Shown here: in pieces, positions 2,583-53,882 of the stretch
Layout of the letters: every line of letters begins with the position of its first letter
Position numbering within the stretch: the stretch's first letter is position 1
Virus genome (UHGV): UHGV-1350217
DNA: 64,000 bases
Source: a virus
Reading direction: 5' to 3' (one strand)
Notes under the pieces: model-generated
Database searches by the model: none
Told to the model about the DNA's origin: nothing
What the model saw: only the letters and a program-made list of their open reading frames with translations
Position numbers and translations under genes: made by a program

Positions 2583-3398
2583 TTAAAAGTTTATAGTTAC
2601 ATCAGGTTTTAGTCTATAGTCTGCATAGAGTAAATAAACTAATTCAGGTTTAGCTTTACCCATCAGGTAAGTATCTGCTATTAGATGAATATAATCATCT
2701 ATAAACCTCATATCATCATCTGTAATAGATTGAGTAATAGGTACTACTTTAGATGGATAATCTTTTAAGGGCTTACCTGTCTTTTCACTTATTCTACCCT
2801 CTATATTATGAGTTATCCAGACTATTCTAATGTTATTAACTTCTATACCTAGTTTTCTATATATCCAAGCATAAGTAAGCATTTGCCATTTATAATTATT
2901 AGGGATATATTCTCTAGGGCTAGACATAGAAGTAGTCTTGAAGTCTACTAGAGTATCCCCTATAATAGCATCAGCTGTTCCTCCTACATAGACATCATCT
3001 GTTAATTTTACAGCTATTCTATCCTCACTTCTTTCAGGAATACCAAAGAGATTTAAATACTCTATCAGTGCTTTACCCATAGGTTCTAATTGGCTTAATA
3101 TAAAAGCCTTATCTAAATCAGGAATAAGCATACTCATATCATCTACATAAGCTTTCAATTCATCTAAATTAACTTCTCTATTCTTGATATATCTCTCTGC
3201 TATTCTATGAACACAACTTCCTAATACTGTAGAAGTATTACCTATAAACTCACCAGATTCACCTAGAACTTGAGTTCTATACCATTCCCACTTTCTCTCA
3301 TTGAAGCCATATATCATACTAGGGGATATTCTAAAGGCATTATCAGGTATTAAATCAGCATAGTTCTCTTGATAATTCATAGATTTCATTTCTTGCAT
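2583..3398 (-). CDS. PD-(D/E)XK family nuclease (phage exonuclease)
   Basis: The segment GGTADAIIGDTLVDFKTT fits the D...(D/E)xK catalytic signature. Gene context is a recombination module. Confidence 0.5.
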   Translation of the reverse strand: MQEMKSMNYQENYADLIPDNAFRISPSMIYGFNERKWEWYRTQVLGESGEFIGNTSTVLGSCVHRIAERYIKNREVNLDELKAYVDDMSMLIPDLDKAFILSQLEPMGKALIEYLNLFGIPERSEDRIAVKLTDDVYVGGTADAIIGDTLVDFKTTSMSSPREYIPNNYKWQMLTYAWIYRKLGIEVNNIRIVWITHNIEGRISEKTGKPLKDYPSKVVPITQSITDDDMRFIDDYIHLIADTYLMGKAKPELVYLLYADYRLKPDVTINF

Positions 3399-3736
3399 AT
3401 AACACCTCTATCATCTATCTCATAGCCTAGAGTTTTAATTCTCTTTTCTAGGAACTTTTTATCAAACTTATTACCTACTAGAGTCATAATATAATCTATA
3501 GTCCTACTAGATAAATCTAATGCAGGTTGAGCTGCTAGAGCTATAGCATCATCTATTAGTTTCTGACCTAAGAACTCATCTGATTTAACATTGCTAGTAG
3601 ATAGATTTAATGGGGGTATACTAGCCTTAAAAGCTTTTAAATCCTCTAGTTGCTTAGACAATACAGATTCCTCTTTCTTTAGTATTCCTAGAATAATCTT
3701 TAATTCCTCTAGGTCTAATGTTATTTGAACATTCAT
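3386..3736 (-). CDS. hypothetical protein
   Basis: ORF in the operon, with overlapping stop/start codons on both sides. Confidence 0.45.
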   Translation of the reverse strand: MNVQITLDLEELKIILGILKKEESVLSKQLEDLKAFKASIPPLNLSTSNVKSDEFLGQKLIDDAIALAAQPALDLSSRTIDYIMTLVGNKFDKKFLEKRIKTLGYEIDDRGVICKK

Positions 3737-4908
3737 TTCAATCCTTTCTTTAAAGTTTTATAATCTCTCTTTTCACCTATAAATAGATGAGCTTTATAAG
3801 ACATTCTAGATATAGCTACATAGATAAGTCTTAGATACTCCTCTAAGCTAATAGGCTTATTGTAATGATTATATTTAGATGGAACTCTAAATAGCTGTTG
3901 ATATATATCTCTAACATCTACAAAGACTTCCTCTATAGTCATACCTTGAGCTTTATGGACTGTAGAAGCAAAGACCTGTTTAGGATGATATATCATATCC
4001 ATTTCTTGCCAGTATGCTTCAGGAGTCTTATATTGTTTCATATGATTTTCTAAAGCAGTCTTAGTCTTATAGACTTTGATTGGATAAGTATTATACTCAA
4101 ATGAAACTAACATTGAGTAATAATCAGGAAACTCATCTAGAGATATTATTTCAACTATATCTCCATTCCTAGCGCTTCCTAAGGGCTTATCTATAACTAG
4201 CATATCTCCTACACTAAACTTAGCTTGATTAATATTGGCATTATAACTATCTACTACTTTATTGCTATAGGCTAATATTCGTTTATGCCTATTAGAAGCC
4301 AAATAAGCTATGCAGAATGCTTTATGGTCATCATAGGCTATGATACCCTTAGGTAAGTTCTCTGATAGCTTGTAGAGTTTCCTAGAGGATATAGAATGCC
4401 TTAACGATTCTAACCACTCTTGAACCTCTGGATTATCTACTTGTCTCATATTCTCTACTAGAGTAATAACACTAGCATTACTAGGAATGCTAGCTTTAAT
4501 ACCTATAGCAGGTAATTGAGATAAGTCTCCTACTAAGATAATCTTTCTATAAGAAGCATTTAGAATAGCATTAAGGACATTTTGAGTAAGCATAGAGAAC
4601 TCATCTATAATAATAACCTTAGATACTAATGGCTCTCTTACTTGACTAAGATATTCACTAATACCATTACGAGTCATAACAAACCCTGCTATAGAATGAG
4701 TTGTATAGCATTTCTTACCTATTTTAGATTCTAGCAATGACTTAGCTTTATTAGTAGTAGCTGTAATGAAGCAGTCTTTTAAAACTTTAGCTAGTTCAGA
4801 TATGAGAAAACTCTTACCTGAACCAGCATTACCTAATATAGCTACTACTCTAGGTTTATCAGTTAGACATAGATTATAAGCCTCTTGTTGTAGTTTATTT
4901 AATTCCAT
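3733..4908 (-). CDS. SF1B DNA helicase (Dda/RecD-like)
   Basis: Walker A GNAGSGKS, Walker B IIIDEFSM, and a C-terminal TVHKAQG motif. Confidence 0.7.
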   Translation of the reverse strand: MELNKLQQEAYNLCLTDKPRVVAILGNAGSGKSFLISELAKVLKDCFITATTNKAKSLLESKIGKKCYTTHSIAGFVMTRNGISEYLSQVREPLVSKVIIIDEFSMLTQNVLNAILNASYRKIILVGDLSQLPAIGIKASIPSNASVITLVENMRQVDNPEVQEWLESLRHSISSRKLYKLSENLPKGIIAYDDHKAFCIAYLASNRHKRILAYSNKVVDSYNANINQAKFSVGDMLVIDKPLGSARNGDIVEIISLDEFPDYYSMLVSFEYNTYPIKVYKTKTALENHMKQYKTPEAYWQEMDMIYHPKQVFASTVHKAQGMTIEEVFVDVRDIYQQLFRVPSKYNHYNKPISLEEYLRLIYVAISRMSYKAHLFIGEKRDYKTLKKGLK

Positions 4909-7106
4909 TTCATTACCTGTGAGATGATAGTACTACGTAGTCTAGCTTCAGGCATAGGGTAAGTCCAATATGAATTAATTTCGTAAACTAAATTAATAAT
5001 ATCCTCATTAGACATTCCTAGTTCCTTAGCCATTCTAGCAGCTCTCCATAAAGCTACACTTCCTTTACCTTGTGGAGCATTAAATGCAAAGTCAAATGTA
5101 GCTTGAGGATTTTCTAATTGAGTAGCTTTCTGTTCAGCTGTCAAATCACTAGGAGAGATATAGCTATTAGTATCCTCTAGACCCTTAGCTATTAATAAAA
5201 ACTCTCTAGCCTCTAACGGATTAGCATTAGTTACTGATAAGACATTTCTACCAGAATAAGAATAATATATTTGACTTCTAGGGAGAATATCAGCATTCAA
5301 ACCTAGAAAGTCTGATATAGCTTTAATAAACCCTTTATACTCTATATCATTTAACTCTACTAAGCTATCTAATTCTAATAAGACTCTATATTTATAGGCA
5401 TTATTAGCATCACTAGTTCTTACTATATGATGATTAAACTCTTTTAAAAAATCATCAACCATCTCATCATCAAAATTAGAGTTATCTATATCTAAAGCTA
5501 TCCATTTAATTTTTCCATATACATTAGCATTGCTTCTAATTCCATTCTTAAACTTAAATGGAGTATAAGCAAAGTCTTTTTGGAGCATATCAGCTAGTCT
5601 AGAGAAAGGTAACTCTGCTGACTGATATCCACTAGCACACATAGCTTTACGTTGTTCTTTATCACCACTAACAGATACAAAAGATACATTTACTAAATCA
5701 GTTTTGATTATTTTCTTATAGTCTATTCCATCAGTAGATACTTCAAAATAGCCTTTATCATCTACACTATTAGCAAACTTTACTAAGTCTTTTAGAGTGT
5801 TATCTACATTTCTAATAGATGGAATAAAACCTAATTTCTTTAACTGATGTAGGTTTAGACTGAATACTTTATCTATAGTAGTGGATTGTTCTGCTAGAGT
5901 AACTAACATTTGATAAGGCTCTTTAGCTAATTCTTTTTCAAATAAGACTATATCATCTAAAATAGACTCAGTAAAGCTAATAGCTTCTTTATATTCTAGT
6001 TCTGTTATAGTATCTAAGCCTTTTAGTAAAGCCAATGCTCCAGCTAATTTAAATGCTCTCCAATAAGCGTGAGTTCTATTAAGCCTAGATATATTAAGAG
6101 TCTTATCTAGTTTCTCAGCAGATTCAGAGCAATATGTTTTATACACTAGCATTAATTGAGAACAAGTAGGAGTCATAGTTATATTTTGACCTACTTTAGC
6201 TATTTCCCTAAGAGCTATATTTCTAAAGATATCTTGCAAGTTTCTTACTGTTTGATATGCTAAATCCTCTCTAGCTACAGCAGCATTAATCATATCTCTA
6301 ACACTAGCATATTCAACTTCATCATTAGCTACTGGAATAAAGCAAAAGAAAGACCTTCTAGATAACTTAGAGTTAAACTGCTTAGAAAACTCTCTCTTAG
6401 CTTTTTCATCATAGAATAAGATATCAGGAGATGACATAAATAGACCACTGAATGGTAGATTTTTAATCTCTTTAGACTGAGATTGTTTAGATTTAATAAT
6501 CTTAACTTCTTTCTTACCTTCATCATACATCTCTGATAATAAAGTTAGATTACTAAGCAAACTAGAGCTATTCTGTAATTCAGAAGTAAACTCTCCTGTA
6601 TAGATAAATCCTGCTCCTATACCATCATCATCTAGAGTATTTAGATGAGCTATAAGACCTTCATTAGTGCTAAGAGAGGCAAATAATGGATTAGGAGCAT
6701 CATAATATTTCATATATTCGCTAGCATCATCAAATCTAACTTTCTTAGCTTGCTTAGCTAGTTCTTTTGCTCTATCTATAGCTTTATCAGTTCTAATTTT
6801 ATTAATCTCATCATAGCCTTCTTTGAAGCATCTATGAATTAGATTAACACTAGAATCCTTACCTAGACCACTAGGGGATAAGATAAAACTAATAGCATTA
6901 ATAGGAATAAGACTTCCATTGTAATGCACTAAGCTTCTATGAAATTGAGAAGCAAATAAAATAGCTTCATTAACAGCTATCATTAGTTTCATCTTGTCGT
7001 TAATTCTAGGGTCTGTAATGACGTTAGCTAAGTCATATATAGTCTTAGGTATTGGAGTATTAAAAGCATTCTGACTTACTAATTCTTGTTTTAATTTTTC
7101 AAGCAT
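4899..7106 (-). CDS. DNA primase with a C-terminal AEP (prim-pol) domain and an N-terminal P-loop-like region
   Basis: C-terminal IALDIDN (DxD), NHHIVRTSD (sxH) and LELD motifs typical of archaeo-eukaryotic primases; N-terminal SPSGLGKDSS. Confidence 0.45.
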   Translation of the reverse strand: MLEKLKQELVSQNAFNTPIPKTIYDLANVITDPRINDKMKLMIAVNEAILFASQFHRSLVHYNGSLIPINAISFILSPSGLGKDSSVNLIHRCFKEGYDEINKIRTDKAIDRAKELAKQAKKVRFDDASEYMKYYDAPNPLFASLSTNEGLIAHLNTLDDDGIGAGFIYTGEFTSELQNSSSLLSNLTLLSEMYDEGKKEVKIIKSKQSQSKEIKNLPFSGLFMSSPDILFYDEKAKREFSKQFNSKLSRRSFFCFIPVANDEVEYASVRDMINAAVAREDLAYQTVRNLQDIFRNIALREIAKVGQNITMTPTCSQLMLVYKTYCSESAEKLDKTLNISRLNRTHAYWRAFKLAGALALLKGLDTITELEYKEAISFTESILDDIVLFEKELAKEPYQMLVTLAEQSTTIDKVFSLNLHQLKKLGFIPSIRNVDNTLKDLVKFANSVDDKGYFEVSTDGIDYKKIIKTDLVNVSFVSVSGDKEQRKAMCASGYQSAELPFSRLADMLQKDFAYTPFKFKNGIRSNANVYGKIKWIALDIDNSNFDDEMVDDFLKEFNHHIVRTSDANNAYKYRVLLELDSLVELNDIEYKGFIKAISDFLGLNADILPRSQIYYSYSGRNVLSVTNANPLEAREFLLIAKGLEDTNSYISPSDLTAEQKATQLENPQATFDFAFNAPQGKGSVALWRAARMAKELGMSNEDIINLVYEINSYWTYPMPEARLRSTIISQVMKWN

Positions 7107-15449: not shown

Positions 15450-16001
15450 TTAACTCTTAATTACTCTATCTACTACAGGTTTAATATTAGATAATAGTAA
15501 TATTATGATACTTTCAGTATTTACATTGCTATCACAATTAATTATATAATCTACACCACTATTAGTATTTATTCTAATAGTATTACCTAAATCTTTAACA
15601 CTCTCATCAGTTAGGTTTATAAAAACTGATTGAGTATCAAAAGAGTAATATACTCTAGGTATATAAGATGTCTCTCTTAATACTGAACTTAATTCTTGAC
15701 GTAGATAAGTTAACTCATCTTTTACATTTTCTAGATACTTACTAACTATATTAGATAGCTCATTAAACTTATCTGTTTTATGAGGATATCCAAATAATAC
15801 ATTATCATAGAAATTATTCACTGTATCTGTACCATTTGCTAATAATGGCTTAAATAAAAATAACATACCTCTTACAGCTTCTAACTTATCATCTAAAGCT
15901 AAATAAGATACAGTATTATCTACTCTCAATTTATCTAGTTTATAGATATCCTCTTTAAACTTCTCTGTTAATTGTATTATATTCATTAATGTGTCTCCCA
16001 T
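15450..16001 (-). CDS. hypothetical protein, tandem paralog 2
   Basis: See 14918..15439. Confidence 0.45.
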   Translation of the reverse strand: MGDTLMNIIQLTEKFKEDIYKLDKLRVDNTVSYLALDDKLEAVRGMLFLFKPLLANGTDTVNNFYDNVLFGYPHKTDKFNELSNIVSKYLENVKDELTYLRQELSSVLRETSYIPRVYYSFDTQSVFINLTDESVKDLGNTIRINTNSGVDYIINCDSNVNTESIIILLLSNIKPVVDRVIKS

Positions 16002-17038
16002 TGATTTTTACCAAACTTAGGTTCTCCGTGAACAGGGTATTTTAGACCTAATTCATAGCTAGTATCTATAAAACTCTGTTCTAATATTGAACCAAACTCC
16101 TCTTTAATTTCAGGTCTAATCTCGAAACTAATAGCATCGTGAACATTTAATATATAAGCAAAGTCTTTATCATACTTATACTTACTTCTTAAGATATTGT
16201 CTATATGAACTAATAAATACTTCATATAAATAGCTCCAGCAGATTGTAATAGTAGATTTAAAGCACTATGAGGACTTCTACAATAAAGCTTCCTACTATC
16301 TAAACCATAGAGATTATCTGCCATAGCTTTAGCGGTAGAATCCTCTACTAGGTCATTATAACCTTTAGTACCACTTTTAAATCTACTAGTAAGTTTAGTA
16401 GCATAGATAGTAGCTTTAATTAATTCGTCATCTACTGGAGCATATTGAGTTTTATTAACTGGATAGTAAAGCTTTCCATTAATCTCTTTACTTCTAGAGG
16501 ATATACTATCAGATGCTATAGCATATTCATCACTAGTATAATCAAACTCTTGACCTTTATAAAGCATATGACCTAGCTTAGTCATACCTGCACCATATAA
16601 AGTGGCATAAATAAAGATTTTAGCAGCATCTCTAGTATCTAATCCAGCTATTCTTTGATTTACAGTATGAACGTCAGTACCCTTAGACTTATCTCCGTGT
16701 TCTACAACTTTAGCATAGTAATAATTGTCGTATTTACTGAGATAATGACCTAACATCACTAACTCTAAAGCCGAAGCATCTACATCCACAAAAACTCTAC
16801 CTTCAGGAACACATATTAATTCTCTCATAAACTGGTCTTTACTAAGTTGTGTCATATTAGGGGAATTGTGTGTCATCCTTCCAGTATTCGCTCCGAGACT
16901 ATCTACTTTACCGTGTATTCTATGAGTATTGGGATTATAACAATTCATAAAACTACCAGCTCCAGTACATAGCATACTAAGGTCTTTATTAGTCTTTAGA
17001 TAGTCTTTTAATAAACTCTTAGCTTCGTTTAATTCCAT
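15986..17038 (-). CDS. DNA polymerase I (family A), C-terminal polymerase piece with palm and fingers
   Basis: Motif A DVDASALELVML, motif B RDAAKIFIYATLYGAG, motif C NVHDAISFE. TGRMTHNSPNMTQL matches the TGRLSSxDPNLQNIP region. Has its own AGGAG and ATG. Confidence 0.8.
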   Translation of the reverse strand: MELNEAKSLLKDYLKTNKDLSMLCTGAGSFMNCYNPNTHRIHGKVDSLGANTGRMTHNSPNMTQLSKDQFMRELICVPEGRVFVDVDASALELVMLGHYLSKYDNYYYAKVVEHGDKSKGTDVHTVNQRIAGLDTRDAAKIFIYATLYGAGMTKLGHMLYKGQEFDYTSDEYAIASDSISSRSKEINGKLYYPVNKTQYAPVDDELIKATIYATKLTSRFKSGTKGYNDLVEDSTAKAMADNLYGLDSRKLYCRSPHSALNLLLQSAGAIYMKYLLVHIDNILRSKYKYDKDFAYILNVHDAISFEIRPEIKEEFGSILEQSFIDTSYELGLKYPVHGEPKFGKNQWETH

Positions 17039-17261
17039 ACCATACTCCTAGTAGCAAGCATTGTCCTAGTAGAAATCCTAATAGATATATGATGTTTTTA
17101 AGCCAAATAACACGTTTCTCAAGCTCTTGAATATAAAGGTTAGTACTTATACTAGTACTAATATTATTATCGCTTAGAGTGCATTCTTTTGCATTTAAAA
17201 GGCTATATATCATTCGTTGTAAATCTACTTGTTCTTTCTGCATAGTTTCTATACTTAACAT
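17019..17261 (-). CDS. possible small membrane protein encoded in the insert that splits the DNA polymerase gene
   Basis: ATG at 17261 (minus strand) gives ~80 aa, MLSIETMQKEQVDLQRMIYSLLNAKECTLSDNNISTSISTNLYIQELEKRVIWLKNIIYLLGFLLGQCLLLGVWYGIKRS, ending in a hydrophobic helix. SD is poor and it overlaps the downstream polymerase start. Confidence 0.2.
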   Translation of the reverse strand: MLSIETMQKEQVDLQRMIYSLLNAKECTLSDNNISTSISTNLYIQELEKRVIWLKNIIYLLGFLLGQCLLLGVWYGIKRS

Positions 17262-17292
17262 CCTAGTTCTAATTAACGTCAAATCAGAGGAT

Positions 17293-18354
17293 TCATTCGC
17301 CATCAGACTCATCACTAGAGTCAAACTTACTATCAAGTGTCTCAGCATTTACGACTATATTTCCTTTCTCAGTAAATACTACTGGTTTCCAATTATAGAC
17401 TCTCATTAATCTATCAGCTATTTGTTGTCTGCTAGACGGATTAAATACTTGAAGCTTTAACTTTTGATAAGTACAACCTTCAGTAGTGATAACATCTATA
17501 GTTCTAAAAGGTTTATCTCTTAGAATACCCTTATACTTTACAAATCTACCATTCTTGCCTATAGGGAGCTGATATTTAGGCGTAAAGATACCTAGAGGTT
17601 TAGTAGAGTCTAATATTAGCTTCTTAATACTAGACCTCTTAGGAATTATCACATCACCATCAGCTACTAGCATAGGAGGGAATTGCTTTCTAAGCTTTTG
17701 CTCTAAACCTATAGAGTGCATTTGTAATCTAGCTGATTCTTTTCTAGCTTTATCTATATCAAAATAACAACCATATTCCTGTTGGTCAAAGATAATAGAA
17801 GCTACTCTATATTCACACTCTCTGATAGACTTAGATGGGTATCTTTCTTTCTTGATTAACTCATTATAAAGCATATAAGTTACATCTACATCTCTTTTAC
17901 AATAAGTCATCATTTCTTGATTTAATCCATTAGCAAAATCGTCATAATCTAACTTAACTAAACCTAGTCTAAATCCAAAAGCTTTAATGCTATAACTACC
18001 ATATAAACTAGGAGGTATTACAGCTCTAGATTTATCAAACTCTGCTAATACGTCTTTAGGTAGAGTAAGCTTAGCATCTATTAGAGTATCTATTAGACTC
18101 TTATCTTTAATCTTACCTAATAGACGTTCTATAATAGGAATATCAAACTTACAGATATTATGACCTATAATTATATCAGCTGAATCTAGTATAGCCTTAG
18201 CTTCGTTTAATAAGCCATCTGAATTATTTACTTTTTCACAAGTATATATCTTAGTAGGATTACTATCTATCTTTAAGGCTATACACCATATATGCTCTAT
18301 ATTCTTTACTAAGTCCACTAATGGACTTGTTTCGATATCAAATACTACCTGCAT
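17293..18354 (-). CDS. DNA polymerase I (family A), N-terminal piece with 3'-5' exonuclease and the start of the polymerase domain
   Basis: Exo I motif VVFDIETS, Exo II motif GHNICKFDIPII. C-terminal ...SRQQIADRL...EKGN...NAETL matches the Pol I thumb entry. Ends in an acidic tail followed by TGA. Confidence 0.8.
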   Translation of the reverse strand: MQVVFDIETSPLVDLVKNIEHIWCIALKIDSNPTKIYTCEKVNNSDGLLNEAKAILDSADIIIGHNICKFDIPIIERLLGKIKDKSLIDTLIDAKLTLPKDVLAEFDKSRAVIPPSLYGSYSIKAFGFRLGLVKLDYDDFANGLNQEMMTYCKRDVDVTYMLYNELIKKERYPSKSIRECEYRVASIIFDQQEYGCYFDIDKARKESARLQMHSIGLEQKLRKQFPPMLVADGDVIIPKRSSIKKLILDSTKPLGIFTPKYQLPIGKNGRFVKYKGILRDKPFRTIDVITTEGCTYQKLKLQVFNPSSRQQIADRLMRVYNWKPVVFTEKGNIVVNAETLDSKFDSSDESDGE

Positions 18355-18781
18355 AGTTATGAGTTCTATAAGGTCTAATATAAATCACAAAGTTCTTTTC
18401 TGTAGCTCTATAGCAATTTATAATCTGACATTTATATTTATACTTAGCTAATTCCTCAGCAAATATATTTCTGATTAGCTTAGTAGTATAAGTACTATCA
18501 CTAACTATAACATCAAATCTAATAGACCCCAGTTTCTTTTTACTTTGAGAATAATGCCTAGTAAAGATTTCGATAATACTAGAATTACGTTCTAGTATAT
18601 CTCTGCATAATATATTCCATTCTGGCATTTCTACGCTCTTATTTATAATCGTATCTATATAAGTCTGTAAATCTATTCTTGTATCTTTCTCTATACTCTT
18701 ACTAGGTTTAAACCATAGAAATACGATAGCTACAGAACAGATTATAATCAATACAGCAGGTATTATTACAAAATCACTCAT
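18338..18781 (-). CDS. membrane-anchored hypothetical protein
   Basis: N-terminal TM helix IIPAVLIIICSVAIVFLWF. Confidence 0.4.
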   Translation of the reverse strand: MSDFVIIPAVLIIICSVAIVFLWFKPSKSIEKDTRIDLQTYIDTIINKSVEMPEWNILCRDILERNSSIIEIFTRHYSQSKKKLGSIRFDVIVSDSTYTTKLIRNIFAEELAKYKYKCQIINCYRATEKNFVIYIRPYRTHNYAGSI

Positions 18782-18931
18782 TTTCTAATCTCCTTTTCGA
18801 TAATCGAACAATTACAGTCTTTCATATTTTCTAAGATACTTAGTCTCTTGTACTCTATTACAGTATTAGATATTAAACCTGCAATACCTATAACTAAAAT
18901 TGTAACTGCAAAATAGAAGTCTATATTACCT

Positions 18932-19117
18932 TTAATCATCTTTACTATCCTTTTTGATTGAGCAATTACATTCAGTTAATGTATCTAGAGTTTTCTCTAA
19001 TACTTTAACTTTTTGATTATTTATTACAAGTATTGCAATTACTCCAGCTATAGTTAGTATGAGTAGTGCTCCTAATGTAGAAAAAAGTGCTAGTAAAGCA
19101 TTATCCATTTCTTTCAT
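18932..19117 (-). CDS. small single-pass membrane protein
   Basis: LLALFSTLGALLILTIAGVIAILVI. Confidence 0.35.
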   Translation of the reverse strand: MKEMDNALLALFSTLGALLILTIAGVIAILVINNQKVKVLEKTLDTLTECNCSIKKDSKDD

Positions 19118-19234
19118 TCCTTTCCCTTTCTATACGTTTTTTAGTATTATCTATAAACTCATAAAATTTATAAGAGTAATAAACACCACGAACAATCCAG
19201 AAAAGCACCATAAATACTAATAATACTTCAAATA

Positions 19235-20020
19235 TCATTCTATGCCTTCTACTGTATATAGTTCACTAAGAATATCTTTATAAGTCTCTAGTAATGTCTC
19301 TTTAACAAACATAAACTTAATACCACTAATAAGCTTCTTATCTAGTTTATGCTTCTTTACTAAAGCTTCTAGATAGTCTTTAATCTCAGCTACTGTCATA
19401 GACATAAACTTAACCCTATTTACTAGTCCTGGAATATCTTTTAAGTCATCTAAAATAGCTTCTAATTCTCCATAATCATCTTCTGGCTCTAGAGTATGTT
19501 CTGTATGATAAAAACCATAACCAGGAGTACTTCTATAAGCAGGATATACATAAGTCTTAGTATCTAGGTTTTCATCAAAGATACAATCAGTATCTGGTTC
19601 ATAATCTATAGTATTCCATAATTTAGTTAGATTATCAATGAAGTTATTATCTAAGATACTGTCATCAAAGCCATTATAGACTATATAAGGATTACCTTCT
19701 ATGAACTTAGGCTTTATATCTAGTATCTTTTCAGCTTCATTAGGTTCAATAGACATATCATTATCTTTAACTATGGCTATACACTTACCTTTACTATAGG
19801 TCATAGTATCTCCAACTAAAGTAGCTAATCTAGCCTCTGTATGCTTTAGCTCTACTCTACCACTATGATGGTCTACAATAGAGCTAACTGATACTATATT
19901 CTCACCACTAGCTAATGGAAATACTATTCCAGGTTTAGTTAGGCTAGTATTTAAATCAGTACCACTAAAGGACTGACCATCTACTTGGTCTACACTATTT
20001 GTCTTTAGGTATTTTCGCAT
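19235..20020 (-). CDS. hypothetical protein
   Basis: ORF; ATGA overlap with a possible 47-aa TM ORF at 19095..19238. Confidence 0.45.
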   Translation of the reverse strand: MRKYLKTNSVDQVDGQSFSGTDLNTSLTKPGIVFPLASGENIVSVSSIVDHHSGRVELKHTEARLATLVGDTMTYSKGKCIAIVKDNDMSIEPNEAEKILDIKPKFIEGNPYIVYNGFDDSILDNNFIDNLTKLWNTIDYEPDTDCIFDENLDTKTYVYPAYRSTPGYGFYHTEHTLEPEDDYGELEAILDDLKDIPGLVNRVKFMSMTVAEIKDYLEALVKKHKLDKKLISGIKFMFVKETLLETYKDILSELYTVEGIE

Positions 20021-20557: not shown

Positions 20558-20956
20558 CTATGGATGTTTATGGAGAGTATTTAATGGAACTGACTTAAAC
20601 TCATAATCTTTGAAGTATTGCTTTAAGATAGGTATAAGCTCTTGTACTTTCATATTATGAAGCTCTTTTACCTCATCAGATACTTTCTCTACATCTGCTA
20701 GATTAAAATCTACAGTAGTACTAGATACTTCCTGAGGATAGTTATAAAATACAGTTGGGATTTGAATGCAAAACTTAGAACCATCTTTAAAGGTCTTTTC
20801 TAAGTGTAATGCCCAATAATGTACCTGATATTCGTTAGAACTAGCCAACTCTCCTGAATTAACTCTAATAGCTTCTAGAGACTTCTGAGTCCATAGAGTG
20901 ATGTTTACTACTTTACCATTAGAGTAATCTACTATTCTTTTTACTAATGAATCCAT
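20558..20956 (-). CDS. hypothetical protein
   Basis: ORF. Confidence 0.45.
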   Translation of the reverse strand: MDSLVKRIVDYSNGKVVNITLWTQKSLEAIRVNSGELASSNEYQVHYWALHLEKTFKDGSKFCIQIPTVFYNYPQEVSSTTVDFNLADVEKVSDEVKELHNMKVQELIPILKQYFKDYEFKSVPLNTLHKHP

Positions 20957-22131
20957 CCTACTTCCTTATATAATTTAAGTGTATTCTCTATACATACTTT
21001 AGTCCATATTTTCCATTCTGGATGCAAGATAGTATGAGAATAAGCACTATTAGCGTTAGAGATATTAAGAGTTAATAAACCCTCTCTAGTTGTGTTATCA
21101 AAATCTCCAGTACATACAGCATTACTACCTCTACCTATATTATTACTCATCATAGGAGTCATATGGGTATAACCTTTAACTCCTCTTGTAGTTAAGTATC
21201 TTTGTATTTGAGCTACTCCATAATATGGAACTACAAAGCCATTAGATAGCATCTGTAAAGGAATATAGACATTCATCTCTGGATTCTCTATAGTCTCTTT
21301 ATCAGTGTAATATATATAAGCATTCTTTACTTGCTTTAATAATTTATCAAATAGGTAATTTAATGGAGCTAAATCTATAGGTTCATTCAGTATAGTTGCC
21401 AAATTAGAAGGAACACCTAGATAGTTATTAAGAGCGTCTCCAAGCATATCTCTAAGTGTATTATTACCTACTTTAGTATTATTTTCAAAGCAAGCTTTTT
21501 TTAGATTTGTAACTCTATCCTCATAAAGACTTAAAATCTCATAATAAAGTTTATTAAGTCTTTCTACAACATCAGAAGCTATATTTTCATCATAAGGTTT
21601 ACTTAGAGAGTAAATACTAGCTATATATTTTCTATCAGTAAAAGTATTCATAGATATTAAAGACATAGCTACCATAGGATGAAGTGGATTAAACACTTTA
21701 CCATTTTCTGTATCTTTAATTAATACTCCATATAAAGTACTTTTATCTAAGTTATTTACTTCCTCTAGGATTCTATTAATACTAGACGTAGTAGTGATAT
21801 TAACTATCTTAGAATCTAATGCTTTATTATTGTCAAGTAAAACATTATCATTTACTAAATCACTCATATCCTCTGTATAATACTTTGGATATTCTATCCA
21901 TCTACCTGCTTTTTCTACATTAAGCCATAAGATTTCATAATTGGTATTAATAGGTAATAGATTCTGAAACAGCTCTTTAGTTCTATCATCTAAACAGTCA
22001 TAACTAGGTAAACTACCAGTACTATTATAGATAAAAGAGACTGTTTTATATAAAAGCTCTATCTTATCTTTAAACATCTCTCGGACTTTATCTAGATATG
22101 AATTAAGAAACACATTCTCTACGATTGTCAT
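20944..22131 (-). CDS. hypothetical protein (395 aa)
   Basis: ORF. Confidence 0.45.
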   Translation of the reverse strand: MTIVENVFLNSYLDKVREMFKDKIELLYKTVSFIYNSTGSLPSYDCLDDRTKELFQNLLPINTNYEILWLNVEKAGRWIEYPKYYTEDMSDLVNDNVLLDNNKALDSKIVNITTTSSINRILEEVNNLDKSTLYGVLIKDTENGKVFNPLHPMVAMSLISMNTFTDRKYIASIYSLSKPYDENIASDVVERLNKLYYEILSLYEDRVTNLKKACFENNTKVGNNTLRDMLGDALNNYLGVPSNLATILNEPIDLAPLNYLFDKLLKQVKNAYIYYTDKETIENPEMNVYIPLQMLSNGFVVPYYGVAQIQRYLTTRGVKGYTHMTPMMSNNIGRGSNAVCTGDFDNTTREGLLTLNISNANSAYSHTILHPEWKIWTKVCIENTLKLYKEVGWIH

Positions 22132-23321
22132 CGTTGCAACTCCTCTAGTGGAAATGTTATATCAGTACTATAATCATTAGTAGTTCCAGTAAAGTTTAGA
22201 CTAGCTGTATCTAGAGTTTTATCGAATAACACTTCATTAGACGCTTCATCTAGGTTATCTCTAGTAGCTAGTATCTTAATAAACTCTACAGTAGCTACTA
22301 GACAATTCATAAAGAACTGAGCTAGTTTAATACTTCCATAAGTCTCTACTTGACTAGCTGTATTAGCTATAGGCTTAGCAATAATAGATACATTATCATT
22401 CTGATGCAATAAAGCTAAGAATCGTAAGTATTTTTTAGCAAATATTTGCCTAGTCTCAAAATCTGGAGCACCTATATACACACAGTGATAAGGGTCTAGA
22501 TTTTTGTGATTTATATGTAGAAACTCATTAAGTCTAAAGTAGTTATTATGTAGCCTTAAAGAAGTACTAGCTAATGAAACTAATTTACCTCTGTTAATTA
22601 AACTTAATTTCCCTATAATTAGTCTAGTATTATTACTTCTATTTATAATTGAATTATCAGTAAATAGACTAAAAGATTCAGCAGTATTAAGTCTTAGCAT
22701 ATTATTAGCTTCTAATGTTTCTTGTTCAAAAATACTGATAGAGTGAAAGATATTATTCATATTTAATATCTCACATAGTTCTATTAGATTCTCAAAGACA
22801 TTACACATCATACCTCCATAACCTATAGAGACAATGTCTAGCTTCTTTTTCTTGACTGCTAGTAAGTCTTTTTTAATGTCTTTAAGGTTATAACCTAGAT
22901 TCTTTAGCTGTTGCTCTAATGGTATTCTCTTTAGTCTTAGCCATCTTTCAAAGAATCTACTAAGAGTAAAGTCTTTAGTTCTGAATCTCTCTACATATGA
23001 AGTCATATCAGCTAATATATTGCTTTGATATCCTAAGTCTCTAGAGAATATATAAGGTACATAATTATCTAGTAGCAATTTCTTATTCTTTTTATTAAAG
23101 ACACTATATTTATCCTTCGGAGCAATGAAAGCATATCTAGTGATAAAACTCATAGATAGATGCTTATTTAGATTATCATCAGAATATCTCTTATTGTTAT
23201 TTATAATAGAGCTTAAATCAACAGTATTTTGAGTTCTCTCTTTTAGACTATTATCAGTTAAATCTTTAGTAGCGTTAGAACATAGAATACCCAACTTATA
23301 TTTATAGTCGTTTATAGTCAT
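22128..23321 (-). CDS. hypothetical protein with a possible Rossmann/ThiF-E1-like nucleotide-binding segment
   Basis: IVSIGYGGMMCNVFENL...ANNMLRL loosely resembles the E1/ThiF GxGGxG...SNLNRQ region. Weak. Confidence 0.4.
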   Translation of the reverse strand: MTINDYKYKLGILCSNATKDLTDNSLKERTQNTVDLSSIINNNKRYSDDNLNKHLSMSFITRYAFIAPKDKYSVFNKKNKKLLLDNYVPYIFSRDLGYQSNILADMTSYVERFRTKDFTLSRFFERWLRLKRIPLEQQLKNLGYNLKDIKKDLLAVKKKKLDIVSIGYGGMMCNVFENLIELCEILNMNNIFHSISIFEQETLEANNMLRLNTAESFSLFTDNSIINRSNNTRLIIGKLSLINRGKLVSLASTSLRLHNNYFRLNEFLHINHKNLDPYHCVYIGAPDFETRQIFAKKYLRFLALLHQNDNVSIIAKPIANTASQVETYGSIKLAQFFMNCLVATVEFIKILATRDNLDEASNEVLFDKTLDTASLNFTGTTNDYSTDITFPLEELQR

Positions 23322-26152: not shown

Positions 26153-28015
26153 CTAACAGATATAATAGCCATCTATGTTGTTTCTAATGGCTTGATATAT
26201 ATCCTCATTATAATTGCTCACTATGCCTGTTAGGTCAATATCCTTATCGGTTACTTGCTTTAGGATACTCTCTAGGATAGGCTCTTTATACAACCTAGCT
26301 AGTGTGTATCTATAGCACTTTCTCAATTCCTCGCAGTCATTGGCATATACACCAAATGAATCGTGAATTGGACTGACTACTATACCTCTCTCCCTTAGCA
26401 TAGTAATCACTTGCCTACATACCCAAGCATCTAAGCTGTGTACCAAATTTACTGCTAGACTTCTCCAGTTATCTTTAGATGCTTCATTATCCTCACACCT
26501 AATGTTGAAGCTAGGATACTTGATACTCTTATCAAGCTCCTTTACTTCTATCTTGTGAATCTTTGTAACTAGACTTGGAACATATGCATAATGTCCATCA
26601 GGTAATCTCCAACTATGATATAACTTAGGCTCATATAGACTATTGATATACTCCTTTAGTCTTATAGGACCACTAGCTAGTTCCTCTATGGCTTGTTCAA
26701 ACACTCCATAGTAGTTACCTAGCATTGTCTTAGGGGTAGCTACTGAGTTGTAGCCAGAAGTCATAATGCTAGCCTTTATGACATCTCTAGGCTTTGCTAA
26801 GTCTAGCTCTTTAGCCTTAGCCTCTAGCCAAGCATCTAAGTCATCTCTATCTCTAGGCTGTACTAGCTCTCTGACTCTATCATACACTAGGCTATAGAAG
26901 TCTTGTCTCTTAGTATTGCCTAATACATTCAATTTCTCCATAGCTTTCTCATCTCTAGTGATGACACTCATCAGCTGATAGCCACTAGCTGTAGCGTCTA
27001 GTCTGACTATCTGTCTAGACTTTCCAGTCTGTAAATAGTGCTTATACTCCTTGACTGCTTGTTTAAACAATAACTTATCACTAGCTGTATTAGTTAATTC
27101 CTCTAGACCTTTATCATCTAACAACTTCTCTAGGTTACTTCTACTCCATTGTAGTCTAGTCTCCCAGTTAGACTTGTCTAGACCATAGGCATTAGCTATA
27201 TCAATCAATAGCCATTCATTGCCTCTAGCATTGACTTCTCTATGCTGGTAGAATCTAAGCAGAGCTTTACCATATTCATTGGCTTGAACATTTATGCAGT
27301 AGCCTTTGCTATATATCCTTCCTCTCTTATCATAGTTCCATTCAAAGTAGAATGGTCTAGTAGAATACTCCTTAGCCATATCTCTTAGCTTAGTGTTAAA
27401 CTTGCTAATACCTTCACTACGATTGGTATCGTCTAGTGTACTATTGATGAAGTCTAGGTCTAGACTATAGGCTACACTAGAGAGATACTCTAGTACATCT
27501 AGGTTAATGCTAGAGTTATCGCTCAAAGCTAAGTGTTGATTAGCCTTATGTCCTAGTATATGTTCACTAGGGTCTGAATACTCTAGTGGTATTATGCTAG
27601 GTCTAAGGTCATAGTCCAATGGTAAGTCAGTCTCTAGTAATCCTTCTGCTATTAAATCAGCATTAGGCTTGACTAGATATGACATACTTCCCTTATCATT
27701 AGGGATACGATTAATATCGTATAGTCCGCAGTGCTGTAGCACTCCTAGTACTAAAGCACCTAGTTGTATATCCCATATCACTGACTTATCTTTGCTAGTG
27801 TAAATCATACCAGCTATGGACTGTAATACACCTCCATCTAATGGTAGAGTAGAGATAGCTTTGAATACTCTTTCTACTAGGTATTCAGGCATAGACTCTA
27901 TTATTTCTACCTGTTCATCTCTAGTAGTCCATCTGGATTTACTAGAGGAATAGCCTAGTATATATTGCTCTAAGGTTTTATACATACTAGACTTAATGAG
28001 TTCTAGTTTGTCCAT
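26153..28015 (-). CDS. single-subunit T7-like DNA-dependent RNA polymerase, N-terminally truncated mini form (N4 RNAPII-like, but as one polypeptide)
   Basis: DxxGR motif YDKRGRIY, motif A RLDATASGYQLMSVITRDE, motif B RDVIKASIMTSGYNS, motif C SPIHDSFGV. At 620 aa it is far shorter than the 883-aa T7 enzyme. Confidence 0.85.
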   Translation of the reverse strand: MDKLELIKSSMYKTLEQYILGYSSSKSRWTTRDEQVEIIESMPEYLVERVFKAISTLPLDGGVLQSIAGMIYTSKDKSVIWDIQLGALVLGVLQHCGLYDINRIPNDKGSMSYLVKPNADLIAEGLLETDLPLDYDLRPSIIPLEYSDPSEHILGHKANQHLALSDNSSINLDVLEYLSSVAYSLDLDFINSTLDDTNRSEGISKFNTKLRDMAKEYSTRPFYFEWNYDKRGRIYSKGYCINVQANEYGKALLRFYQHREVNARGNEWLLIDIANAYGLDKSNWETRLQWSRSNLEKLLDDKGLEELTNTASDKLLFKQAVKEYKHYLQTGKSRQIVRLDATASGYQLMSVITRDEKAMEKLNVLGNTKRQDFYSLVYDRVRELVQPRDRDDLDAWLEAKAKELDLAKPRDVIKASIMTSGYNSVATPKTMLGNYYGVFEQAIEELASGPIRLKEYINSLYEPKLYHSWRLPDGHYAYVPSLVTKIHKIEVKELDKSIKYPSFNIRCEDNEASKDNWRSLAVNLVHSLDAWVCRQVITMLRERGIVVSPIHDSFGVYANDCEELRKCYRYTLARLYKEPILESILKQVTDKDIDLTGIVSNYNEDIYQAIRNNIDGYYIC

Positions 28016-30702: not shown

Positions 30703-31566
30703 ATGGCTAATATACAAGGTAAAAAGTATATCAAGCAAAACAATGCACCTAGTAGTAGAGAGATAATACCTACTACTGATACTAGTTCAATAGACAATCC
30801 AAATAATAGTAAAGTTAATCTAGCAGCTATTACAGCTAGTAAAGTATATGGTTGGTTTAATGCCAATAGACGTAAGAAGCATAAATGTGTTATTACTGAT
30901 GAAGCTGTAGAGCTGATTAAAAAGAGTGCTAGTGAGGAAGCTTTTGATGGCTATAGATTTATAGATACTATATTAGAGTTTAGAAGTATCCTAGATGAGG
31001 ATAGTGATATACAGCTAGAGGATTACATCAATGCAGTAAGATTTTGTAGCTATCTAGAAATTTATAAAGGTAATGCCATAGAAGCATATATAGAAGCTTT
31101 TAGATATAAAGAGTTTGTAGATAAGAAGCGTAATGCACCTAGAGATAGTAGAGAATATCTTAGTTTGGTTAATGCTGCATCTAGATACAGAAAGCATCCA
31201 CTAGTAAAGAAAATCCTAGCCCAAAGTGAAATACCATTGTATATTATGTTTCAAGGCTATAGATATGCAGCTGTAGAGAAATTAGTAGAGGAGATGAATA
31301 ATGCTAAGCTTAGCAGAGATAGGATTAATGCAGCTGATAAGTTGCTATTACATCTAAAAGCTCCAGAGGGCATAGAAGTAAATGTTAATGTCAAGAAAGA
31401 TAGTGAGACTATCATAGATACATATCAGGAAGCTATTATGAATATGATACAAAAGCAAAAGGCTCTAATACAAAATGGAGGTAATATGCACGATATAGTC
31501 AATGCCAGCATTAAAGGAGAGGAGAAAGAAGTGATAGACATAGAGGAGAGTGAAAGTAATGCCTAA
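30703..31566 (+). CDS. putative terminase small subunit (by position), otherwise hypothetical
   Basis: Immediately upstream of and overlapping the terminase large subunit gene; no motif evidence. Confidence 0.3.
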   Translation: MANIQGKKYIKQNNAPSSREIIPTTDTSSIDNPNNSKVNLAAITASKVYGWFNANRRKKHKCVITDEAVELIKKSASEEAFDGYRFIDTILEFRSILDEDSDIQLEDYINAVRFCSYLEIYKGNAIEAYIEAFRYKEFVDKKRNAPRDSREYLSLVNAASRYRKHPLVKKILAQSEIPLYIMFQGYRYAAVEKLVEEMNNAKLSRDRINAADKLLLHLKAPEGIEVNVNVKKDSETIIDTYQEAIMNMIQKQKALIQNGGNMHDIVNASIKGEEKEVIDIEESESNA

Positions 31567-34569: not shown

Positions 34570-35744
34570 TGCTTATACCTTTTACTACAAGCAATATAAA
34601 GAGTGTCCAAACTGAGACATCTCCTGATGGTAAGAATAAAGTTACGACTACTATAGTTCAATATGAGATACCAGCAGAGTTAACTAGCTTTGCTACTAAT
34701 ATTGAAGCTATATTAAACGTTAATAACAATATAGAGAATGTTAAGAAAGTATCTGGTGCTATAGAAATATGCAATAAGATACTAGCTGAGATAGATACTC
34801 TAAAAGCTGTAAATGCTAATATAGAGACTATTAAACAAGTAAATTCTATGAAAGCCTCTATAGAGACTATTAAAGATACTCTAGATGTACTAAGAACTAC
34901 TAATAATAATCTAGACCTATTAAAAGCTATCTATGCAGATAAAGAGATGTATAAAACACTCTATGGCTTTAGAGATGCTTATGTTAATGATTCAGAGAAT
35001 ATGCAAGTATTAAAAGACATCTATGCTAAGCTAGAGAAATTACTAGGAGTATATGACAAATTAGATGTAATATCTATAGTATATGACCATTTACTAGCTA
35101 TAGAGATAGTAGCTCAAGGTATGTCTAATATCGTTACATTTAACAGCAATATAGAGACATACAAACAGCTAGTAACATTAAAGAATGACATAGCTACGCT
35201 AGCTAGTAATATGGTCATAATCAAAGAAGCATTAGAGAAATTAAATGACTTACCTAGACTTACTAATGAACTAGAAGCTAAACTTACTACTAAAATTACT
35301 CAAGCCTTAGCAGATATAGATTCTAAAGCTAAAGAAGTATTAAAGCAAATAGCTGATAGCTTTGTTAAATGGGAACTAGAACTCACTAAGATTCAAAAAG
35401 AGATTAGTGATTTTAAACTAGATACCAAACAAGCATTAGACAATATCTCTACTCAGATACTACCTAGTGTAAACAAGAATAAAGATGACATTGCTAAGCT
35501 AGATACTAAGCTTAATAATGAATTATTGCTACTTAAACAAGAGATTCTTAGTATTAAAGAGAAATATACAGGTCATCAGATTGTTAATAACATTACTTCT
35601 ACTGAAACTACTACAGCTACAGAAACTAAGAATGTTACAGAGACCAAAAATGTTACAGCTGATGTTAAAGCTACTGTAACAAGTACTAATAATAACACTA
35701 CAACTAACAATATTACTAATCTAGGAAATGGAGAAGATATCTAA
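34569..35744 (+). CDS. coiled-coil tail fibre/appendage protein
   Basis: Long heptad-like repeats (for example NANIETIKQVNSMKASIETIKDTLDVL) and a T/N-rich C-terminus. Confidence 0.45.
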   Translation: MLIPFTTSNIKSVQTETSPDGKNKVTTTIVQYEIPAELTSFATNIEAILNVNNNIENVKKVSGAIEICNKILAEIDTLKAVNANIETIKQVNSMKASIETIKDTLDVLRTTNNNLDLLKAIYADKEMYKTLYGFRDAYVNDSENMQVLKDIYAKLEKLLGVYDKLDVISIVYDHLLAIEIVAQGMSNIVTFNSNIETYKQLVTLKNDIATLASNMVIIKEALEKLNDLPRLTNELEAKLTTKITQALADIDSKAKEVLKQIADSFVKWELELTKIQKEISDFKLDTKQALDNISTQILPSVNKNKDDIAKLDTKLNNELLLLKQEILSIKEKYTGHQIVNNITSTETTTATETKNVTETKNVTADVKATVTSTNNNTTTNNITNLGNGEDI

Positions 35745-35745
35745 G

Positions 35746-53848: not shown

Positions 53849-53882
53849 ACTGCTAAACTTAAACTAATTTAAGGATAGCAGT
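53849..53882 (+). promoter_or_regulatory. hairpin that encloses the SD of the giant RNAP gene
   Basis: ACTGCTA pairs with TAGCAGT (7 bp) and CTTAAA with TTTAAG (6 bp) around a CTAA loop. The second arm ends 1 nt before the ATG. Confidence 0.35.

Follow-up and report, generated by a model that had tools for sequence, protein, structure and literature searches.

Genes at the DNA polymerase locus

The stretch of 64,000 nucleotides that was analysed, from the virus genome UHGV-1350217 and hereafter called the window, encodes a complete T7-like family-A DNA polymerase as the products of two ORFs on the minus strand. The first of these, polN (17293..18354, minus strand), encodes the N-terminal fragment of the enzyme (353 aa) and the second, polC (15986..17038, minus strand), the C-terminal fragment (350 aa), which are exactly the coordinates at which the original prediction had placed a split polymerase. 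The interval from the polN stop to the polC start (17039..17292) measures 254 bp, the length predicted for the insert, and the whole of it is occupied by a small gene, orfS (17019..17303, minus strand). An acidic tail followed by a stop had been predicted for the first ORF, and polN does terminate in the ten residues FDSSDESDGE followed by TGA. The fresh start predicted for the second half is likewise present: polC begins with an ATG at 17038, which is preceded at a distance of 6 nt by the Shine-Dalgarno sequence AGGAG (17045..17049, minus strand). It should also be noted that the window phage carries its own T7-type RNA polymerase. A scan of 17039..17292 with a sigma-70 consensus detected no promoter- or terminator-like site, a result of little weight since this consensus was the only one used and may not suit a phage that encodes a polymerase of that type.

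The product of polN was found to align with residues 3–371 of T7 gp5 and to match the Pfam family DNA_pol_A_exo1 (E 3.5e-6). Besides the 3′-5′ exonuclease domain it comprises the beginning of the polymerase domain, and its share of the thumb runs as far as the equivalent of T7 helix H2. The motifs Exo I (FDIET, of the form DxE), Exo II (HNICKFD, of the form HNxxKFD) and Exo III (YCKRD) are all present and align with D5/E7, the HNGHKYD motif and the YNVQD motif of the T7 enzyme. The product of polC begins with MELNEA, aligns with T7 gp5 residues 381–657 and matches Pfam DNA_pol_A (E 7e-23) from position 79 of the 381 positions of the model. It contains the last thumb helix (equivalent to T7 helix I), the palm and the fingers, with motif A (DVDASALEL) and motif C (VHDA) in the palm and motif B (RDAAKIFIYATLYGAG) in the fingers. 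These three motifs conform to the patterns DxxxLE (A), RxxAKxxxYxxxYG (B) and HDE/A (C) and align with those of T7, and the motif residues are invariant in an alignment of 51 sequences. As judged from these alignments, the catalytic motifs of the enzyme are all intact in polN and polC, and the exonuclease motifs, motifs A, B and C and a fold like that of T7 gp5 (see below) assign the protein to the T7-like family-A DNA polymerases. Both halves are under purifying selection, with dN/dS values against close relatives of 0.11–0.20 for polN and 0.08–0.16 for polC.

Position of the break and structural modelling

The break had originally been placed where Pol I continues into the fingers. The alignments with T7 gp5 put it instead within the thumb, at T7 residues 372–380, between helices H2 and I, and the thumb would therefore be built from two chains. 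In the alignment of the junction this site is a variable loop. The prediction that no residues are missing was borne out, with polN aligning up to T7 residue 371 and polC from residue 381, and with the two halves abutting to the nucleotide in unsplit pelagiphage relatives (for example at 12247/12248 in HTVC134P).

An AlphaFold 2 model was built from polN and polC artificially fused as one chain, with the alignment of 51 sequences as input, and gave a pLDDT of 89.1 and a pTM of 0.86, compared with a pLDDT of 32.8 when the fused protein was modelled from the single sequence. In a Foldseek search against the PDB the 27 highest-ranking matches were without exception structures of T7 DNA polymerase, with E values as low as 1.8e-37 and TM scores of 0.70–0.79 (0.74–0.79 for the best). 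The concatenated polN and polC products are thus predicted to fold like T7 polymerase. Residues 342–350 at the junction were modelled as a coil between the helices 337–341 and 351–376, with the local pLDDT falling to about 63. As the input was an artificial fusion, this model says nothing on the assembly of two chains.

The gene between polN and polC

The predicted protein of orfS is 94 aa long from the ATG at 17303, or 109 aa from an ATG at 17348 which would add a hydrophobic N-terminal extension, and ends in both cases at 17019. The original prediction of a possible 80-aa ORF with a transmembrane helix was right as to the ORF and the helix and too short as to the length. The ATG of orfS lies within ATGGCGAATGA, which overlaps the polN stop. 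The gene overlaps the end of polN by 11 nt (56 nt if the start is at 17348) and the start of polC by 20 nt. At its C-terminus a transmembrane helix, IIYLLGFLLGQCLLLGVW, is followed by a KRS tail. In its reading frame orfS shows a dN/dS of 0.12–0.26, as against 0.6–5.5 in the other two frames, and 22 cluster representatives (89–100% identity) carry an undamaged copy, one of them with an in-frame indel of a single codon. The 254-bp insert is a real protein-coding gene. No match to orfS was found in Pfam or PHROGs, and the homologue search returned near-identical copies within the same phage group only; orfS would be a lineage-specific small protein with a predicted C-terminal membrane helix.

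Conservation of the split among related phages

A search with polC detected about 29 protein clusters of stand-alone homologues of approximately 350 aa (48–96% identity), including records from Campylobacter hyointestinalis, C. concisus and C. fetus, and full-length homologues (570–610 aa) appeared only at 40% identity or less to polC. At the nucleotide level, 20 kb of the window had no megablast match in the phage collection, and distant blastn gave only patches of about 100 nt in pelagiphage polymerases. Genome contigs searched with a single-protein query also gave nothing, and an alignment-based query found C. concisus.

In a neighbour-joining tree the stand-alone polC proteins form one clade, the sister group of which is contiguous at the break site. 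Mapping by tblastn and the alignment of the junction showed the polN stop and the new polC ATG at the same alignment column in every member of the clade, with the acidic tail and stop codon of polN also conserved across it. The two-gene arrangement was found in more than 20 independent assemblies and is therefore neither chance nor an assembly artefact. The fission has been inherited by the whole of this group of Campylobacter-associated phages. It is likely that it arose once, as the tree suggests; this apparent single origin falls short of proof since the tree carries no support values and since one unsplit relative (L032) is a mosaic, in which the identity is 65% up to the intron and 40% beyond it.

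What lies between the two halves varies with the lineage among the related loci (designated by L numbers). The 254-bp gap with orfS is shared by the window and L002, L004–L008 and L010, and L001 and L029 have a gap of 419 bp with two small ORFs. Gaps of 0.35–1.6 kb in other members hold a dCMP deaminase gene, genes for DUF7222 proteins or other small ORFs. Small or hydrophobic gap ORFs include one of 39 aa in L001 and L029, one of 64 aa in L014 and short ones in L009 and L011. Two members have no insert at all: in L003 polN and polC overlap by 11 nt, and in L028 they are separated by an 18-nt spacer of the form TAA-AAGGAG-N9-ATG. The sites AGGAG in L003 and AAGGAG in L028 are dedicated sites equivalent to the polC Shine-Dalgarno sequence of the window. 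These insert-free loci show that the split is independent of any insert.

Test for an intron

The insert had also been suggested to be the footprint of a group I intron. If the 254 bp were an intron of group I (or group II), small and either degenerate or devoid of an ORF, splicing would restore the mRNA of a full-length polymerase, and such a reading is not without a basis, as 254 nt fits the size of a minimal group I intron and introns of this class are common in the gene family. Rfam model RF00028 scored 80–93 bits in polC of L006, L017, L030 and L032, which served as positive controls, and larger interruptions in relatives were found to hold, at the intron sites, ORFs for HNH_3/NUMOD4 and Endonuclease VII (Endonuclease_7) proteins. 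However, these true introns sit at conserved catalytic motifs, some beside HNH endonuclease genes, whereas the break in the window is in a variable loop. When 16700–17700 was searched with Rfam at a permissive cut-off (E ≤ 10), no intron and only noise (ROSE_2 and snoRNAs) was returned. Scans at the gathering threshold of the whole window and 24 related loci located introns solely within polC of relatives, with none anywhere in the window, none at any gap between the two halves and no RF00028 core in the insert. The stability of the folded insert RNA was no greater than that of shuffled sequences (z = +0.33), and the substitutions in it follow the codon pattern described above for orfS, with no sign of structure constraining the coding sequence. 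Further, the identical site is where L003 and L028 are split, with nothing to splice, ordinary genes such as that for dCMP deaminase occupy the gap in other relatives, polC has an AGGAG-ATG of its own, and the extra tail and stop of polN are conserved in the clade. No intron was detected in the insert, and its splicing is considered very improbable as an explanation.

Mobile elements, joining of the halves and assembly error

A related possibility is that the insertion of a mobile element, whether a free-standing homing endonuclease gene, an intron or a moron, made the split, with orfS as its remnant or cargo; the original prediction had listed such a footprint among its explanations. The unrelated DNA at the junction in different lineages does resemble an insertion hot spot, introns and HNH genes have colonised the polymerase gene elsewhere, and in a related lineage (L019–L023) the gene is broken elsewhere, with two ORFs between the pieces in this case as well. 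Against this, Pfam and PHROGs assigned no nuclease family to orfS or to nine gap ORFs of relatives, and endonuclease, transposase and integrase domains are absent from the gap ORFs tested, so that nothing in them marks a homing endonuclease. The gap itself yielded neither repeats nor a ribozyme. The purifying selection on orfS indicates that it is not a decaying remnant, and the existence of insert-free split relatives is also against a footprint of this kind. Nor is a mobile element necessary, since the polymerase fission of phage S-SBP1 arose by a simple frameshift and a new start codon (PMC10201439). The origin of the split through a mobile element is accordingly held to be unlikely, and it concerns the origin only, being compatible with a polymerase that consists of two subunits at present.

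The two halves could in principle also end up as one polypeptide, if a split intein joined them or if the ribosome shifted frame or bypassed the gap. Split-intein ‘fractured genes’ with an intervening endonuclease gene are known from metagenomes (PMC2677866), and the overlapping frames of L003 superficially resemble a frameshift site. A split intein would have an N-intein of approximately 100 aa terminating the first half and a C-intein of approximately 35 aa leading the second, followed by a Cys, Ser or Thr at +1. The extra residues at the junction number about 10 on polN and 3–4 on polC, too few for intein halves, and polC starts with M-E-L without such a nucleophile; no intein is present and the fractured-gene reading was rejected. 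Frameshifting and bypassing were rejected as well. All frames of the gap contain stops and a separate conserved ORF lies there, gap lengths that range between −11 nt and about 1.6 kb cannot be reconciled with a conserved frameshift or bypass signal, and in L028 an in-frame TAA is followed by its own AAGGAG-ATG. Joining by either route is regarded as extremely improbable.

Finally, the split could be a sequencing or assembly error, or the polymerase a pseudogene of a defective element. The window appears to derive from a metagenome-assembled genome, as an orfS protein identical to its own is recorded as ‘MAG TPA: hypothetical protein [Caudoviricetes sp.]’, and this would leave room for an error. 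The same architecture is however found in many independent assemblies, among them genomes of Campylobacter isolates, and a single indel cannot amount to a 254-bp segment. The single sequencing indel raised in the original prediction is excluded by the conservation of the split, and dN/dS values of about 0.1–0.2 for all three ORFs speak against both an error and a pseudogene. Explanations of this sort have next to no chance of being correct.

A two-gene DNA polymerase

It is considered highly probable that the locus represents a fixed fission of a T7-type family-A polymerase, with polN and polC as cistrons in their own right and a single enzyme formed by the non-covalent association of their products. 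The marks of gene fission are present: polN has its own stop, polC has its own ribosome-binding site and start at the homologous position with zero residues lost, and the split is kept in diverged relatives with purifying selection on both halves. Of the explanations originally offered, the genuine two-subunit polymerase is thus the one that is supported, by the clade-wide split at one site, the selection, the intact motifs and the insert-free split relatives. An ancestral T7-type polymerase gene would have undergone fission where it encodes a loop on the thumb surface, between the equivalents of helices H2 and I, and this would later have become fixed as polN and polC, with each chain contributing to the thumb. 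From then on the boundary between the two would have become an ordinary intergenic junction at which different lineages gained different genes, orfS being the gene probably acquired in the lineage of the window phage. It is probable that polN, orfS and polC are co-transcribed and that their translation is coupled, as suggested by the overlapping stop and start codons and the dedicated AGGAG of polC. The non-covalent association of the two products and any function of orfS are inferred.

A more speculative extension is that the boundary between polN and polC is a selected ‘cargo slot’, which would couple accessory genes to the expression of the replicase, and that the recurrent small membrane proteins anchor the two-piece polymerase to the membrane or regulate it there. 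This is considered unlikely. If it were true, a DNA-contacting thumb made of two chains might permit a regulated assembly of the polymerase. Candidates for such membrane proteins are orfS, the 39-aa and 64-aa ORFs of L001/L029 and L014, and the short hydrophobic ORFs of L009 and L011.

Comparison with other split DNA polymerases

To our knowledge, family-A polymerases were long considered single-chain enzymes, and the first natural fission of a gene into exonuclease and polymerase parts was reported as late as 2023. Naturally split polymerases occur in family B, namely gp43A/gp43B of some T4-related phages and PolB of Methanothermobacter, where two polypeptides cooperate and foreign DNA sometimes lies between the cistrons. 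The polymerase family and the break points differ from those of the window, and the resemblance is one of functional analogy only.

The nearest precedent is found in S-SBP1-like T7-like cyanophages, in which fission of the PolA gene gave interacting exonuclease and polymerase products (Czernecki et al., 2023, NAR; PMC10201439). As in the window, a fixed fission has left a T7-like family-A polymerase with two neighbouring genes, the overlapping stop and start of L003 show the same layout, and the predictions for S-SBP1 are that solvent reaches the new termini and that the two products form the normal fold (PMC10201439). By the description in that paper, the S-SBP1 fission separates the exonuclease from the whole polymerase domain, whereas the break in the window lies about 170 residues further, at T7 residues 372–380 inside the thumb, and polN therefore carries part of the polymerase domain. 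The window phage also belongs to a different clade, linked to Campylobacter records, most members of which have at least one unrelated gene between the halves.

PolA is also found in two ORFs with a small ORF between them in the OM43 phages MEP401 and MEP402 (Zobellviridae), for which the question of an intron was left open (PMC10580990). There, too, the exonuclease and the N-terminal part of the polymerase are followed by an ORF without assigned function (77 aa) and then by the C-terminal part. However, these phages belong to another family, the small ORF is unrelated to orfS, and gp15 of MEP401 starts at motif A (MILNADAKALE, corresponding to polC residues 82–150), about 80 residues downstream of the window break. 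For the window clade, and for this clade only, the question of intron or split is answered. In the polymerase genes of SPO1/HMU phages, Bastille and the T7-like phage phiL7, group I introns are known, accompanied or not by homing endonuclease genes, as cited in PMC10580990 (refs 42–44 therein). In the window, too, a few hundred bp interrupt the polymerase ORF, and such introns occur in its relatives; the window insert differs in having no ribozyme signature or excess structure and in encoding a conserved protein, and its flanking halves in having their own stop, ribosome-binding site and start, at a site that is a variable loop.

Split T7-like PolAs have thus already been published, at sites that differ from the thumb site described here. 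The latter represents a second, independent kind of fission, which cuts the polymerase domain itself through the DNA-gripping thumb and which is stable across a diverse clade of phages linked to Campylobacter, oral and gut species among them. Since relatives of the same gene carry both fissions and introns, the two can be distinguished in metagenomic annotation. Gene callers label the halves as ‘exonuclease’ and ‘truncated polymerase’, and recognition of the pattern would therefore avoid a verdict of ‘replication-defective’ for such phages. The arrangement also provides a natural two-piece PolA design, which may be useful in protein engineering and in split-enzyme assays.

Organization of the split polymerase genes

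The family-A DNA polymerase of UHGV-1350217 was found to be encoded, as originally predicted, by two minus-strand ORFs separated by 254 bp: polN (17293..18354, 353 aa), with a Pfam DNA_pol_A_exo1 match, and polC (15986..17038, 350 aa), with a Pfam DNA_pol_A match (E 7e-23). The latter match covers the model from position 79 onward only, indicating that the domain begins in polN. The C-terminus of polN reads ...LDSKFDSSDESDGE and is followed by TGA. The fresh AGGAG-ATG proposed for the second half was confirmed, with polC starting at ATG 17038 and AGGAG (17049..17045) lying upstream with a 6-nt spacing. The claim that no residues are missing was borne out by comparison with solved structures, in which T7 gp5 residues 3–371 align with polN and 381–657 with polC, and by tblastn against phage genomes, in which the two query halves adjoin to the nucleotide in unsplit pelagiphage relatives (HTVC134P, 12247/12248; HTVC309P, 13336/13337). 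The polymerase is thus complete across polN and polC with nothing left out, and all catalytic residues are present in the two combined.

On T7 gp5 the break maps to residues 372–380. As both helix H2 (365–372) and helix I (376–400) of T7 gp5 belong to the thumb (PMC9198812), the fission lies inside the thumb and not at the thumb/fingers or exo/pol border, contrary to the earlier suggestion that Pol I continues into the fingers at this point. PolN accounts for the exonuclease domain, the beginning of the polymerase domain and the larger share of the thumb, leaving the last thumb helix, palm and fingers to polC. An AlphaFold2 model of concatenated polN and polC, using a 51-sequence alignment, was confident, with a pLDDT of 89.1 and a pTM of 0.86, and in the PDB every one of its best matches was T7 DNA polymerase (E 1.8e-37, TM up to 0.79). 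Model residues 342–350 are in coil conformation, with confidence falling locally to ~63, and are flanked by helices 337–341 and 351–376. The model, which is of an artificially fused chain rather than two chains, fits a placement of the new termini in an exposed loop.

Conservation and origin of the split

To place the split among related phage polymerases, a database search was conducted with polC. This returned ~29 clusters of stand-alone proteins of 348–356 aa (48–96% identity), among them records of Campylobacter hyointestinalis and C. fetus, with full-length forms (570–610 aa) appearing only at ≤40% identity. An upstream N-half gene was present in each stand-alone context examined. A further ~35 loci of the clade came from scanning viral and genome collections; many lie on phage contigs of 59–70 kb, and two are in C. 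concisus CCUG 19995. Locus mapping and junction alignment placed the polN stop and the new polC start at one alignment column in all members, flanked by ...KVDxxTL... and ...LKxYLK..., and the closest outgroups (loci L032, L062, L019–L023, P0030, P0031 and P0034) are contiguous across this site. In a neighbour-joining tree of the C-half region, calculated without support values, all stand-alone C-halves grouped into a single clade, and its sister group is unbroken at this position. The dN/dS ratios were 0.11–0.20 for polN and 0.08–0.16 for polC. The polymerase gene has thus undergone fission, and a sequencing error is rejected because the split is conserved across relatives.

The unsplit locus L032 is a mosaic at 1431–2814, with 65% identity to the window polC before an intron and 40% after it, a pattern that would fit recombination or co-conversion around the intron site.

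Gene content of the polN–polC junction

What lies between the halves varies by lineage. In L003 (48% identity) they overlap by 11 nt and in L028 they are parted by an 18-nt spacer (TAA-AAGGAG-N9-ATG), while the window, L002 (86% identity), L004–L008 and L010 share a 254-bp gap with one ORF. An 88-aa minus-strand ORF and a 39-aa hydrophobic ORF occupy the gap in L029 and in L001 of C. hyointestinalis (419 bp in the latter). Two small ORFs are found in L017, L025, L031, L033, L075 and L087, three in L012, L015, L016, L018, L024 and L030, and a dCMP deaminase gene (PF00383, PHROG 174) in L013, L014, L027 and L045. The largest gaps are those of L009 (about 1.6 kb, DUF7222 proteins) and L011 (about 1.5 kb, a 319-aa ORF). 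No nuclease, transposase or integrase domain was detected with Pfam or PHROGs in the gap ORFs tested. Given this variable content and the lack of such domains, the boundary behaves like an ordinary intergenic junction within a phage replication module, one that has been filled by different genes in different lineages.

It should also be noted that the differing cargos of L001 (5585–5851, minus strand) and L011 (3123–3401, minus strand) both hold a ~90-aa minus-strand ORF. The two products have a membrane segment at the N-terminus and resemble each other in a Cys-rich motif (CSYCDKNFNC... and CGYCDKNYIC..., respectively), so that this looks like a recurrent small gene at the junction.

In the window the insert was suggested to carry a possible 80-aa ORF ending in a transmembrane helix. 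The ORF and its C-terminal helix were upheld but the length was not: orfS (17019..17303, minus strand) runs for 94 aa from ATG 17303, which lies inside ATGGCGAATGA and overlaps the polN stop, or for 109 aa from an alternative ATG at 17348 giving a hydrophobic N-terminal extension, and it ends 20 nt inside polC. Among five diverged copies the in-frame dN/dS was 0.12–0.26, in line with both polymerase halves, versus 0.6–5.5 in the other two frames. A protein search returned 22 cluster representatives (89–100% identical), all 22 intact, two having a single-codon in-frame insertion in common, and confined to contigs of the window's phage group. The protein is conserved in its central region and has a hydrophobic helix near the C-terminus (IIYLLGFLLGQCLLLGVW), after which comes KRS; no Pfam or PHROG match was found for the family. 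The insert is therefore a gene, and orfS can be described only as a small membrane protein specific to this lineage and predicted to be expressed together with polN and polC. Directly upstream of polN (18338..19238, minus strand) lie four further small ORFs of 147, 53, 61 and 45 aa, each with a predicted membrane helix, so that orfS belongs to a group of small membrane-protein genes clustered within the replication module.

Intron, intein and recoding explanations

The interruption had also been proposed as the footprint of a mobile element or group I intron, and such introns do occur in this lineage. RF00028 matches of 80–93 bits were detected in polC of L006/L010 (1702–1985, in motif B), L017 (3665–3890), L030 (4099–4354, at motif C) and L032 (1900–2146), demonstrating that the Rfam method works here. 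These lie at four different positions, corresponding to window polC aa 60, ~aa 142–147 (motif B, two loci) and aa 303 (motif C). Larger interruptions of 0.7–1.0 kb were found at or near the intron sites and at polC aa ~91 (motif A), for example in L018 (2771–3376), L016 (4525–5061) and L031 (2670–3350), with ORFs bearing HNH_3/NUMOD4 or Endonuclease VII domains which are presumably intron-borne homing endonucleases; others occur in L024, L025, L028, L033, L062 and L087. The C. concisus element (L087/L088) carries two such interruptions in addition to the N/C split.

In the window itself, Rfam at gathering threshold gave no family match over the whole stretch, a permissive scan (E≤10) of 16700–17700 returned noise only, polC contained no group I intron, and the RNA stability of the insert was no better than that of shuffled sequence (z = +0.33). 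The true introns of polC sit at catalytic motifs, whereas the N/C break falls within a variable loop, comes with a stop, Shine-Dalgarno and start of its own, and is insert-free in L003 and L028. On these grounds, and with no nuclease, transposase or integrase among the gap ORFs tested, the intron or mobile-element reading was rejected. A split intein was excluded since only ~10 and 3–4 extra residues flank the break and polC starts M-E-L, with no nucleophile. Frameshifting or bypass was excluded by the gap length, ranging from −11 nt to 1.6 kb, and by the separately translated ORF within it.

Proposed mechanism and comparison with known split polymerases

With the fission conserved, dN/dS at purifying levels and the catalytic residues kept, a genuine two-subunit polymerase is strongly supported and very probable. 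PolN, orfS and polC would be co-transcribed, no promoter- or terminator-like site having been found in the gap in a scan limited to the sigma-70 consensus. The gene overlaps would probably give translational coupling, polC also having its own AGGAG, and a T7-like enzyme would form by non-covalent association of the fragments. The basis for inferring both association and coupling is the analogy with the S-SBP1-like T7-like cyanophages, whose exo/pol gene fission was reported as the first split PolA, the two-chain prediction superposing on an unsplit homologue (Czernecki et al., 2023; PMC10201439). The S-SBP1 break is described as separating whole domains with no intervening gene, whereas that of the window is inside the thumb with orfS between. 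In the OM43 phages MEP401 and MEP402, PolA is likewise divided between two ORFs that flank a small unknown ORF, and the authors could not decide whether the interruption was an intron (PMC10580990). In MEP401 the second ORF begins at motif A, which places its break ~80 residues downstream of the one in the window. The sister lineage L019–L023, contiguous at the window site, is broken instead in the thumb-tip region, ~100 residues closer to the N-terminus (L019, 1711–4565: polymerase ORFs of 301 and 448 aa with two unknown ORFs of 125 and 81 aa between), which looks like an independent fission. Fission of T7-like PolA has thus occurred more than once, at different loops. The general phenomenon is already published; the site, the clade and the variable cargo are new, and the locus represents a clean, well-sampled intradomain PolA fission.

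Genome context

The window has a G+C content of ~31%, and nothing closely related to it was found in the phage collection; related contigs are 59–70 kb. It encodes a short (620 aa) T7-type single-subunit RNA polymerase (26153..28015, minus strand; PF00940), an SU10-type portal (40828..42891, plus strand; E 1e-138), a PIF1/AAA_30 helicase (3733..4908, minus strand) and a PD-(D/E)XK nuclease (2583..3398, minus strand). The large ORFs 4899..7106, 20944..23321, 31550..33199 and 35728..37488 had no Pfam match. The C. concisus, C. hyointestinalis and C. fetus records suggest a Campylobacter host at the level of the wider clade. In C. concisus CCUG 19995 the same polymerase locus occurs on contigs 010 and 001 (L087, L088) of one isolate genome, one copy on a 63-kb contig and the other inside a 566-kb contig, suggesting an integrated and an episomal copy or an assembly duplication. 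Finally, 53868..64000 (plus strand) is occupied by a single uninterrupted reading frame that extends past the window end and has at least 3,377 codons. Its product would be a giant protein for a genome of roughly 66 kb, comparable in size to the virion RNA polymerases found in N4-like phages.
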